Positions 33,101 to 37,893 of a DNA stretch of 64,000 nt are shown piece after piece. Source of the stretch: an uncultured Holophagales bacterium (lineage in GTDB: Bacteria > Acidobacteriota > Thermoanaerobaculia > Multivoradales > UBA5704); the NCBI GenBank assembly GCA_963842525.1, contig CAWJGT010000009.1, positions 1,504,001 through 1,568,000 of the forward strand, written 5' to 3'. Below the pieces are notes generated by a model. That model did not search any database, had not been told where the DNA came from, and worked only from the letters and a program-made list of their open reading frames with translations. How positions within the stretch are numbered: the stretch's first letter is position 1; each line of letters opens with the position of its first letter. The translations under genes were made by a program, and so were the position numbers.

Positions 33101-36100
33101 CCGCGGCGCCGGCTCTTCCCGCTCTCCCGCCCCTGGACATCCAGCCCGCCGACGTCGCGCGCTGGCAGCGCGCGGCGCTGAGCGGCGGCGCCCTGGCGCC
33201 GCAGGTCGCCTACTGGCGCAGCGCCCTCGCCGGAGCCTCCGGCACCCTCGATCTGCCGATCGACCGGCCGCGGCCGGCGGTGCAGACCGACCGCGGCGGC
33301 GCGGTCCCGCTCACCCTGCCGGCCGAGGTGGCGCGCGACCTGCGCGCCGCCGCCCACCGCGAGGGGGCGACCGTGTTCATGGCCCTGCTCGCCGGCCTGG
33401 CGGCGGTCCTCCACCGCTACACCGGCGAGGAGGACCTGGTGATCGGCACCCCGGTGGCGCACCGCACGCGCAAGGAGCTGGAGGGCCTCGTCGGCCTGTT
33501 CGTCAACACGCTGCCGCTGCGCTGCGATCTGACGGGGGACCCCACCTGGCGCGAGCTGCTGGGCCGCGTCCGCGGCACCGCTCTGGGCGCCTACGTCCAC
33601 CAGGACGTCCCCTTCGAATGGCTGGTCGAGGAGCTGCACCTGCGGCGCGACCTGTCCCGCGGCCCCCTGTTCCAGGTGATGCTCTTCCTCCAGGAGGGTA
33701 TCGGCGCCGGCCTGGCGCTGCCTGGCCTGCGTTGCGCGCCGGTGCCGCTGCACAACGGCACCGCCAAGCTCGACCTCACCATCTCCCTCACAGCGATGGA
33801 CGGTGCGCTCGACGGCGGCATCGAGCTGAACGCCGCCCTCTTCGACCTCCCCACGATCGAGCGCCTCGCCGGGCACTTCGGCTGCCTGCTGCGGGGCGGC
33901 CTCGCCGACTCCGGCTGCCACCTGTCGGCGCTCCCCCTCCTCGACGAGGCGGAGCGCCACCAGCTCCTGGCCGGCTGGAACGGCACCGCCGCCGCGGGTG
34001 GCGCCACGGCGAGCCTCTACGATCTATTCGCCGCCCAGGCGTCCCGTACCCCGGAGGCGGCCGCGGTCCACTTCCGCGACCGGTGGCTGTCCTACCGGGA
34101 GCTCGCGGAGAAGGCGGAGGTCCTCGCGCGGCGGCTACGCGCCCTCGGGGTGGCCGCGGGCGACCGGGTGGGTATCTGCCTCGAGCGTTCGGCGGAGCTG
34201 CCGGCCGCCCTGCTCGGGGTGCTCGCGGCCGGGGCCGCCTACCTGCCGCTCGACCCCGCCCTGCCGGAGGCGCGGATCGCCGGAATGGTCGAAGAAGCCG
34301 CGCCGGCCGCCCTGATCGTGCGCCGCGGCTCCCGGAGAGGGTCGGCGGCCTGCCCGCTCGTCTTCGTGGACGAGGACGGCGAGGGCGCACAGCTGCCCGG
34401 GGCCGGACCCGGAGCCGAGGCTCCGGCGTACCTGATGTACACCTCCGGCTCGACGGGCCGGCCCAAGGGGGTGGTGGTCACTCACCGCAACGTCCTCAAC
34501 TTCTTCGCCGCCATGGACGAGGTCCTGGCGGCCGACGCGACGGGGGTCTGGCTCGCCGTCACCGGCATCTCCTTCGACATCTCCGTCCTCGAGCTGCTGT
34601 GGACGCTTTGCCGCGGCTACACGGTGGTGGTGCAGGAGGAGCTGCGCGCCACCCCCCGGCCGGCGGCCGGCGCGGGCCGCCCGGCGCGCCCGCTGGACTT
34701 CAGCCTCTTCTACTTCGCCGACGCCGGCGGGGACGCCGACCGCTACCGTCTGCTGCTCGACGGCGCGCGCTTCGCGGACGAGCACGGCTTCGCGGCGGTC
34801 TGGACCCCGGAGCGCCACTTCCACTCCTTCGGCGGGCTCTACCCCAGCCCGGCGGTGACCGGCGCGGCGGTGGCCGCGGTGACCCGGCGGGTCGGCGTCC
34901 GCGCCGGCAGCGTGGTGCTCCCCCTCCACGATCCGCTGCGGGTGGCCGAGGAGTGGTCGGTGGTGGACAACCTCTCCCGCGGCCGGGCCGGCGTCTCCTT
35001 CGCCTCCGGGTGGCACGCCGACGACTTCGTGCTCGCGCCGGACAGCTACGCCGCGCGCAAGGAGGTGATGCTGCGCGGCATTGACGAGGTCCGCCGCCTC
35101 TGGCGCGGCGAGCCGGTGCGGCGCCGCGGCGGCGCCGGGCAGGAGATCGACGTGCGGATCTATCCGCCGCCCGTCCAGGCCGAGCTGCCGTTCTGGCTCA
35201 CCGCCGCCGGCAACGCCGAGACCTTCCGCGAGGCGGGCCGGCTGGGCGCCAACCTCCTCACCCATCTGCTGGGGCAGAGCGTCGAGGAGCTGGCGGAAAA
35301 GATCGCGGTCTACCGGGCGGCGCGGCGCGAGGCGGGGCACGACCCCGAGAGCGGCGTCGTCACCCTGATGCTCCACACCTTCGTCGGCCGCGACCAGCAG
35401 GAGGTGCGGGCGCGGGTCCGCGGCCCGCTCACCGAGTACCTGCGCAGCTCCGTGGGCCTGGTGGACAACCTGGCGCGCAGCCTGGGCCTGGGCGCCGACG
35501 CCGGCAGCCTCTCGCCCGCGGACCTGGAGGCCCTGCTCGACCATGCCTTCGAGCGCTACTTCGCCACCAGCTCGCTGCTCGGCACCCGTGAGGAGTGCCG
35601 CGGCCGGGTGGCGCGTTTCCAGTCGCTCGGCGTCGACGAGATCGGCTGCCTGATCGACTTCGGGGTCGAGGTCGACGCGGTCCTCGCCAGCCTCGCCGAC
35701 CTGGCCGCCTTGCGCGAGGACGTCCAGGCCGCCGCGCACCGGCAGGCGGGCGAGGACGATTACACCCTCGCCGTCCAGGCCGCGCGGCACGGCGCCACCC
35801 ACCTCCAGTGCACCCCCTCGCTCGCCGCCCTCCTGGTGGCGGACCCGGCCTCCCGGGAGGCGCTGCGCCCGCTGCGCAAGCTCCTGGTGGGAGGCGAGGC
35901 GCTGCCCGCGCCCCTGGCCGAGCAGCTCACCGCGGCGGTGGGCGGGGAGGTCCTCAACATGTACGGCCCCACCGAGACCACGGTCTGGTCGCTGTACGAC
36001 CGGGTGCTGCCGGGCGAGCGGGTGACCCTCGGGCGGCCGCTGCGCAACACCGGGGTCCATGTGCTCGATCCGCGGCTGCAGCCGGTGCCCGTCGGCGTGC

Positions 36101-37893: not shown

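Follow-up and report, generated by a model that had tools for sequence, protein, structure and literature searches.

A glycine adenylation domain interrupted by both a luciferase-like monooxygenase and an FkbM-type methyltransferase: a candidate on-line route to α-methoxyglycine

The window analyzed here, a stretch of 64,000 nucleotides from an uncultured Holophagales bacterium (phylum Acidobacteriota; assembly GCA_963842525.1, contig CAWJGT010000009.1, positions 1,504,001 to 1,568,000), holds the first ~45 kb of a locus that encodes a hybrid assembly line of nonribosomal peptide synthetase (NRPS) and polyketide synthase (PKS) modules. The third of its ~15 modules contains a doubly interrupted adenylation (A) domain with a glycine-type code, carrying a luciferase-like monooxygenase (LLM) between core motifs a4 and a5 and an FkbM-type methyltransferase (MT) between a8 and a9. 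Among the A domains compared, FkbM inserts are found in glycine-coded domains only where an LLM is present, and the MTs that accompany an LLM form a clade of their own. We propose that the two inserts act in turn on carrier-bound peptidyl-glycine, which would be α-hydroxylated, O-methylated to α-methoxyglycine, and passed on along the line, a proposal to which we give about an even chance.

Anatomy of the doubly interrupted domain

Gene 1 of the assembly line encodes, as read from Pfam matches, the architecture FAAL-ACP-C-A-PCP-C-A-PCP-C-A(LLM)(FkbM)-PCP, in which C stands for condensation, ACP for acyl carrier protein, and PCP for peptidyl carrier protein. The gene and the parts of its third module, in window coordinates, are as follows.

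24187 to 37893, + strand: NRPS gene 1, 4,568 amino acids (aa) (list of open reading frames [ORFs], translation, Pfam)
32641 to 33966, + strand: condensation domain of module 3 (tblastn map; PF00668; HHxxxDG-type motif in the translation)
34021 to 34656, + strand: N-terminal part of the A domain, a1 to a4 (first PF00501 stretch at nucleotides [nt] 34027 to 34644; tblastn map)
34699 to 35715, + strand: FMN-dependent LLM insert between a4 and a5 (TIGR04020, PF00296, PDB 6KET)
35734 to 36426, + strand: middle of the A domain with the position-278 region, a5 to a8, and the first half of the C-terminal subdomain (second PF00501 stretch; tblastn map)
36427 to 37335, + strand: 303-aa FkbM-family (type II M) insert between a8 and a9 (PF05050, TIGR01444, alignment limits)
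37336 to 37476, + strand: a9 to a10 and the remainder of the C-terminal subdomain (translation; tblastn with the A_C query, 37279 to 37476)
37504 to 37746, + strand: PCP of module 3 (PF00550 at nt 37537 to 37725), with a tail of ~50 aa after it

All core motifs from a1 to a10 are found in the translation of the A domain. Its PF00501 match is split in two around PF00296, and the LLM lies past a4, ahead of the position-278 region and a5. The match to the small C-terminal subdomain, PF13193, is also split: profile positions 1 to 38 (nt 36322 to 36435) precede the FkbM domain, whose Pfam core spans 36628 to 37212. The FkbM insert starts right behind a β-strand that, in the other two A domains of gene 1, both uninterrupted, leads straight to a9; a single A domain has thus been interrupted twice, and the arrangement is not that of an A domain with a pseudo-subdomain behind it. 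This confirms the first-pass annotation, made from the letters of the window alone, which had described both inserts with their motifs and placed them at ~34690 to 35720 and ~36490 to 37290, with errors of no more than a few tens of bases.

The same annotation had read a glycine code. In an alignment of 80 LLM-bearing A domains, the window's included, the ten specificity positions of module 3 are DILQLGMVWK, identical at 9 of 10 places to DILQLGMIWK, the reported code of all four Gly-activating domains with a monooxygenase (MOX) that were examined in one study (PMC12283262; for this and most other papers cited here, statements refer to the available passages of the paper). Gly-type codes occur in 80 of the 80 domains compared, and glycine is thus the predicted substrate.

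The first insert matches PF00296 (Bac_luciferase; E 1.1e-44, residues 3516 to 3818) and, in NCBIfam, TIGR04020, the model for MupA/Atu3671-type FMN-dependent LLMs, with 528.6 bits against a cut-off of 244.45 over profile positions 1 to 341. The nearest solved protein is PDB 6KET, "PuwE" (E 1.6e-122, 349 aligned residues), whose 362-residue chain we infer to be the PuwE monooxygenase domain. In the puwainaphycin PKS/NRPS, the monooxygenase domain of PuwE and an aminotransferase were assigned the 3-amino-2-hydroxy acyl unit (PMC4219810). This closest solved relative has thus been assigned hydroxylation of the carbon adjoining a carrier-protein thioester; unlike the window LLM, it sits between PKS and NRPS parts rather than within an A domain, and its substrate is a β-amino fatty acyl chain.

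In the Gly A domains of MtaG and MelG, a luciferase-like domain occupies the a4-a5 site (PMC10204066). The proposal is that it hydroxylates Cα and that the carbinolamide then breaks up, leaving a glyoxylyl thioester and a terminal amide (PMC11342130, PMC11411415, PMC10204066, PMC13548996). The first-pass annotation had called this mechanism established; the passages of all four papers term it proposed, and one regards it, in the case it describes, as purely speculative. The window module shares with MtaG and MelG the Gly-type code, the a4-a5 site, and, with these, the proposed Cα hydroxylation of PCP-bound glycine. MtaG and MelG are terminal C-A-MOx-A-T-TE modules, ending in a thioesterase (TE), that finish the chain as a primary amide, whereas the window module is without a TE, has the extra O-MT-type domain, and is followed by a ketosynthase (KS) and ~12 further modules.

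A second LLM is encoded just upstream of the NRPS genes by an 826-aa ORF (window 19065 to 21545, + strand). Its C-terminal part (20427 to 21416) is a TIGR04020 LLM, 55% identical to the embedded one; for the first ~450 aa, neither Pfam nor NCBIfam gave a match.

The second insert matches PF05050 (FkbM; E 8e-16, 59.1 bits against a cut-off of 22.7, residues 4148 to 4342) and TIGR01444 (fkbM_fam; NCBIfam, 107.8 bits against 37.7), and is not a class I N-MT of the Methyltransf_11/12 type. A search of PDB sequences with this insert gave no match at E ≤ 0.01. Lundy et al. (2020) sorted methyltransferase (M) domains within A domains into six types; type II lies between a8 and a9, measures 290 ± 13 aa, and has a DVGx(N/H)xG motif for S-adenosylmethionine (SAM) and five more motifs, and for its representatives KtzH and ColG O-methylation of Ser was shown biochemically (PMC8341866). 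The window MT, at 303 aa, occupies the identical site and has all six type II motifs in order, with 44 of the 49 specified positions matching when compared by eye with Table 1 of that paper; the five mismatches are conservative in motifs i, ii, and vi and include two changes in motif iv. All six motifs are retained in the consensus of 38 relatives, and the type II strand L-x-(A/G)-(aromatic)-x-x-P precedes the insert, with W in the aromatic place. KtzH and ColG (family 2a/5a of Lundy et al.) therefore agree with the window MT in site, size class, the six motifs, and the DVGxNxG form of the SAM motif. Unlike the window module, which is predicted to load Gly, carries an LLM too, and has an MT in a separate clade, their A domains load Ser (or Thr), and the side-chain hydroxyl is methylated.

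Paoli et al. (2022) list 29 FkbM members in characterized clusters as O-MTs, 4 on experimental and 25 on inferential grounds; outside these 29 stands EreM, an FkbM-family N-methyltransferase of backbone amides (PMC9259500). A further FkbM-type O-MT, HtmB1 of hangtaimycin, is likewise a domain of an NRPS module (PMC10624959). The first-pass annotation took the insert for an O-methyltransferase rather than an N- or C-methyltransferase, and its membership in the M-domain type whose characterized members O-methylate suggests that this assignment is right.

Distribution and coupling of the two inserts

A domain-architecture search for A-LLM-A-FkbM-A, as the first-pass annotation had advised, found the double interruption at 37 distinct loci in 34 assemblies (38 in 35 when the cut locus L088 is counted), mostly of uncultured bacteria, from the Acidobacteriota, Chloroflexota (Herpetosiphonaceae), Gemmatimonadota, Cyanobacteriota, and Bacteroidota. 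One scan compared the whole interrupted domain with one genome per prokaryote species and gave 254 relatives, from which 80 loci were kept; their domain order was mapped by tblastn with domain queries derived from the window, to which a TE is invisible. The order A-LLM-A-FkbM-A occurs at 23 of these 80 loci, plus 2 that are cut at the 5' end, and the other 55 have an LLM without FkbM. Scanning with only the MT insert as the query gave 129 relatives and 78 loci, 15 of them with LLM and FkbM (three on contigs from the first scan). Four of five genomes of the same genus hold at least one copy, at 60 to 65% identity.

The coupling of the two inserts is evident from the specificity codes of 54 A domains with an FkbM insert at a8-a9. 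When an LLM is also present, 13 of 14 are Gly-coded and the remaining one is misaligned; when it is absent, none of 40 is. Among these 40 LLM-free domains, 11 or 12 codes start with DFWN, DLWN, DFWS, or DFWP and 10 with DVWH, which we take to be Thr and Ser codes; the rest are various. Glycine itself has no hydroxyl to methylate; that this O-MT type is seen in Gly A domains only alongside a hydroxylase is as the model of the first-pass annotation predicts.

In a FastTree phylogeny of 117 FkbM domains, the 37 LLM-associated embedded MTs and that of L088 are set apart by a single split with a support of 99. Their consensus departs from the Ser/Thr group at several otherwise conserved places, one of which is the Ser/Thr position of motif iv. 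When the A+LLM backbone is used for the tree instead, the FkbM-bearing rows are scattered, with 11 changes, at least 5 of them forced (the cut locus L019 counted as "none"). Taken together, the scatter and the one MT clade suggest a dedicated MT lineage that moved among, or was lost from, LLM-Gly A domains. The scatter points to FkbM having been gained, lost, or recombined repeatedly and does not count against its function.

The genome of the window holds a second, paralogous module ~190 kb upstream, 59% identical to module 3 (L169:7559-13144; the region L169:7559-14055 corresponds to G000:C9:1343559-1350055). It is a stand-alone C-A(LLM)(FkbM)-PCP protein of 1,861 aa that ends its NRPS cluster. 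Directly after it lies a gene for a 304-aa FkbM protein, 43% identical to the embedded domain; + strand ORFs farther on (L169:14118-15479 and 15522-16553) were set aside as non-coding by codon-position GC.

Gly modules of the MtaG type, with an LLM only (L025 to L080), occur in Myxococcus, Polyangium, Streptomyces, Nostoc, Tumebacillus, and others. Eight of the 55 FkbM-free LLM loci (L033, L070, and six more) form a separate clade with a larger a8-a9 insert; nothing was detected past the PCP in five of the eight, and in L064 a KS follows. In L033 (6548-12448) and L070 (8564-14197), this insert is a Methyltransf_12-type MT, and the C-A-PCP protein ends after the PCP, without a TE. L033 and L070 are of the same type as FshJ (fischerazoles) and the crz-like NRPSs of Serratia and Pseudomonas, which resemble the window module in having a Gly A domain with both a MOx domain and a methyltransferase and differ from it in that the latter is an N-methyltransferase of another Pfam family (a family shown for L033 and L070). 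FshJ, a terminal module, has a TE, and release as an N-methyl amide is proposed for it (PMC13548996); MOx and N-MT were noted together in 38 crz-like clusters, for which the authors suggest truncated, linear products (PMC11342130).

Each insert is thus of a known kind, and Gly A domains with MOx and N-MT have already been noted, in FshJ and the crz-like NRPSs. In the available passages of the categorization by Lundy et al., the only double interruptions are of the M+M kind and at other sites (PMC8341866): the family 7 A domains have, like the window's, two separate interruption sites, but these hold two M domains, at a2-a3 and a6-a7, rather than an oxygenase at a4-a5 and an M domain at a8-a9. 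We found no literature that joins luciferase-like, FkbM, and adenylation, in a search that left most subscription journals and supplements outside, and the LLM + FkbM double interruption is apparently not yet described. Nor did the full-text literature, again with most subscription journals outside, yield a natural product with methoxyglycine, only synthetic or unrelated mentions. The work on bosamycin concerns a P450 domain and was set aside as not relevant. A listing of sequencing runs contained no RNA run, only small shares in soil-type metagenomes.

Proposed chemistry and its alternatives

Directly downstream of gene 1 in the window lies the following gene.

37878 to 47420, + strand: gene 2, KS-AT-ACP-C-A-PCP-C-A-PCP (Pfam, translation, tblastn map)

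Genes 1 and 2 overlap by 16 nt. In the KS (37920 to 39047), the Cys and both His motifs of the catalytic triad are intact, and the first unit, KS-AT-ACP, is without KR and DH domains in Pfam. Of the 37 loci, 15 have a KS after the PCP of the module, 13 have a small FkbM gene and beyond it a KS or C, and 5 have a C domain, so that 33 of 37 continue in one of these ways; of the other 4, 2 reach the end of the contig and 2 (L011 and L031) show nothing detectable. In L003, L008, and L010, the double-insert module is the first amino-acid module, directly after FAAL-C.

In the sequence of steps that we propose, module 3 of this lipopeptide/polyketide line would load glycine and take over a fatty-acyl-dipeptide through its C domain, which would place the N-acyl (peptidyl) group onto the glycine. 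The embedded FMN-dependent LLM would then hydroxylate the glycine Cα, the carbon adjoining the thioester, and the embedded type II MT would use SAM to methylate the hemiaminal hydroxyl. The product, N-acyl-α-methoxyglycyl-S-PCP, would be an N,O-acetal that does not collapse to amide and glyoxylate, and the KS of the next protein would accept the methoxyglycyl chain for extension with malonate without β-processing. In cephamycin, at C-7, and in the O-methyl N-acyl aminal of the pederin type, a hydroxylase and an O-MT likewise methoxylate an N-acylated carbon; they do so after assembly, as separate tailoring enzymes of other families and not as domains within an A domain. The first-pass annotation had already suggested α-methoxyglycine and its hand-over to the KS. 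The co-occurrence of the inserts, the MT clade, and the internal position of the module now favor that suggestion; the site of hydroxylation, the atom that accepts the methyl group, the order of the two reactions, and the transfer to the KS are deduced from the domain anatomy, and the terminal paralogue is not explained by simple trapping and passing on.

Retention of the hydroxylated residue has parallels, since mid-chain α-hydroxyglycine is kept in solanimycin B and skyllamycin (PMC10204066). As in our model, the residue arises on-line and remains inside the peptide; in SolF of solanimycin B the flavin monooxygenase lies between a8 and a9, Sky39 of skyllamycin is a separate enzyme, and neither comes with methylation. 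Unmethylated retention may therefore be common, and methylation would be no precondition for passage. Solanimycin is reported to be unstable (PMC10204066).

Several observations weigh against α-methoxyglycine formation. No product has been linked to any cluster with a double-insert module, and the cited literature, as far as its available passages go, contains no assay of a MOx domain of this type. KtzH and ColG methylate aminoacyl-S-T before condensation (PMC8341866), whereas the model needs a peptidyl hemiaminal as the substrate, and in EreM the FkbM family includes an amide N-methyltransferase (PMC9259500). LLM-only Gly modules are mostly internal, with 39 of 61 rows continuing with C (21) or KS (18), which means either that capping is not needed for passage or that passage of the residue is not what happens; the textbook role in terminal amide formation thus accounts for only part of the uses of the LLM domain. 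The separate FkbM gene that stands between the module gene and the next megasynthase gene in 13 of the 37 loci (41 to 48% identity to the embedded domain by tblastn; L001:13912-14508, L014:13923-14585, L082, and 10 others) has no role in the model; the cluster of the window is without one. Past the PCP, L011 and L031 have no KS, C, or FkbM match, and three ORFs there in L011 match no Pfam family. The paralogue, finally, is terminal and TE-less and is left unexplained by trapping and passing on; together with L011 and L031, it resembles the terminal LLM + N-MT proteins of L033 and L070, which presumably release by cleavage. It is because of the internal LLM-only modules, the TE-less terminal paralogue, and the extra FkbM gene that we rate α-methoxyglycine no higher than evenly balanced.

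In L022 (13884-17370), from a metagenome-assembled genome of Cyanosarcina radialis, the module is separated from the next KS by genes that encode a 3-hydroxyacyl-CoA dehydrogenase, an acyl-CoA dehydrogenase, and a HAD-type hydrolase, a set that resembles those making hydroxy- or methoxymalonyl-ACP extender units.

The first alternative is that the chain is split, as proposed for MtaG, MelG, and FshJ (PMC11342130, PMC11411415, PMC10204066, PMC13548996): the fatty-acyl-dipeptide would leave as a primary amide, and the glyoxylyl-S-PCP, perhaps methylated as its hydrate, would prime the downstream KS and all later modules. Release by cleavage fits the TE-less terminal copies, namely the paralogue in the same genome and, with an N-MT, L033 and L070, as well as L011, where nothing was detected past the PCP. 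The C domains that follow the module have no clear placement with ordinary elongation C domains, their placement in the tree being unsupported. That tree comprised 137 C domains, after 80 rows labeled "after plain A" had been dropped at random; the label "after FAAL" does not form one clade (15 of 29 are in a supported clade), and the six focus C domains fall outside it, without supported placement. Splitting would leave the O-methyltransferase without an obvious substrate after cleavage, and the strict coupling of MT and LLM and the separate MT clade speak against it. It sits poorly with the 33 of 37 loci that continue with KS, C, or FkbM, and with L003, L008, and L010, in which cleavage at this first module would release only a fatty amide and the FAAL-loaded lipid would be discarded after one condensation. 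We regard splitting as unlikely.

Alternatively, FkbM might methylate another atom, such as the amide N (as EreM does; PMC9259500), Cα, or a hydroxyl elsewhere, with the LLM acting independently. EreM demonstrates that the fold can N-methylate backbone amides, and several otherwise conserved positions, the Ser/Thr position of motif iv among them, set the Gly/LLM-associated MTs apart from the Ser/Thr MTs. The window MT nevertheless has the full set of type II O-MT motifs, and the LLM-Gly modules that N-methylate use a Methyltransf_12-type MT and fall in a separate clade. The lack of a single Gly code among the 40 LLM-free FkbM A domains would be hard to explain if the new hydroxyl were not needed, and we consider this reading quite unlikely.

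Methylation could also be cryptic, with methanol expelled to give an N-acylimine that is captured intramolecularly, in a heterocycle or cross-link, or reduced, so that the final product lacks the methoxy group. N,O-acetals are standard N-acyliminium precursors in synthesis, to judge from the available passages of that literature; the β-keto group from the reductase-free KS-AT-ACP module would be a nearby nucleophile, and the extra FkbM gene of 13 loci points to more than one simple capping. Nothing speaks for the proposal directly, and methanol is not, to our knowledge, a leaving group in any NRPS biosynthesis described so far. What follows the module varies, from a KS with or without processing domains to a C domain, which argues against one fixed follow-up reaction. 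We hold this explanation to be decidedly improbable.

That one or both inserts are inactive relics and plain glycine is incorporated is very improbable: although motif iv of the window MT has two substitutions, nothing specific supports the idea, both inserts score well over their family cut-offs and retain the motifs of their families, those of SAM binding and of the LLM core being intact in module 3, and many columns of both are invariant across 28 homologues of 49 to 64% identity from several phyla, which agrees with the assumption of the first-pass annotation that both are active.

Surroundings of the locus and significance

Directly before the FAAL of gene 1, an 857-aa protein (window 21542 to 24115, + strand) contains a lantibiotic-dehydratase N-terminal domain (PF04738; E 2.2e-39) and has no NCBIfam match; it could dehydrate Ser/Thr or add an amino acid as small LanB-like enzymes do. 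At the other end, gene 3 extends 14.4 kb past the window (L167:9002-15400) and ends in a fused TauD/TfdA-type dioxygenase domain, not a TE. Past gene 3 lie a B12-binding radical SAM gene and a free TauD gene (L167:15964-17622; L168:9864-10889). The ~59-kb assembly line (window ~19000 to L167:~15000; G000:C9 ~1523000-1582000) has a GC content of 70 to 77%, against 57 to 66% in its flanks; the downstream NRPS genes (L168) have only ~62%. Upstream are a phage-type integrase gene (5448 to 6554) and transposase genes at 7451 to 8467 and 14072 to 15628 (minus strand). The composition and these neighbors suggest that the locus was horizontally acquired or is a mosaic.

The distribution of the double interruption, in at least 34 assemblies of five phyla, may reflect a widespread and so far undescribed on-line route to α-methoxyglycine in nonribosomal peptides and hybrids, with an O-MT lineage coupled to the MtaG-type hydroxylase; the case for such a route stands, in our judgment, halfway between doubt and acceptance. 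The strict coupling of LLM and MT and the dedicated MT clade provide genome miners with a simple rule for residue prediction, and three isolates with the module, Herpetosiphon sp. NSE202, Flavobacterium branchiicola CCUG 60096, and Adonisia turfae CCMR0081, are places to seek the product. If the model is true, the methyl cap would be a stable +30-Da readout that makes the long-assumed MOx chemistry directly observable; in a bolder variant, the methoxy group might be a latent N-acyliminium handle for later ring closure. NRPS lines would then build α-methoxyglycine, an N-acyl N,O-acetal, by means of two domains nested in one A domain, and the chain-ending hydroxylation of the MtaG type would have been re-used, through a capping methyltransferase, for modification in mid-chain.

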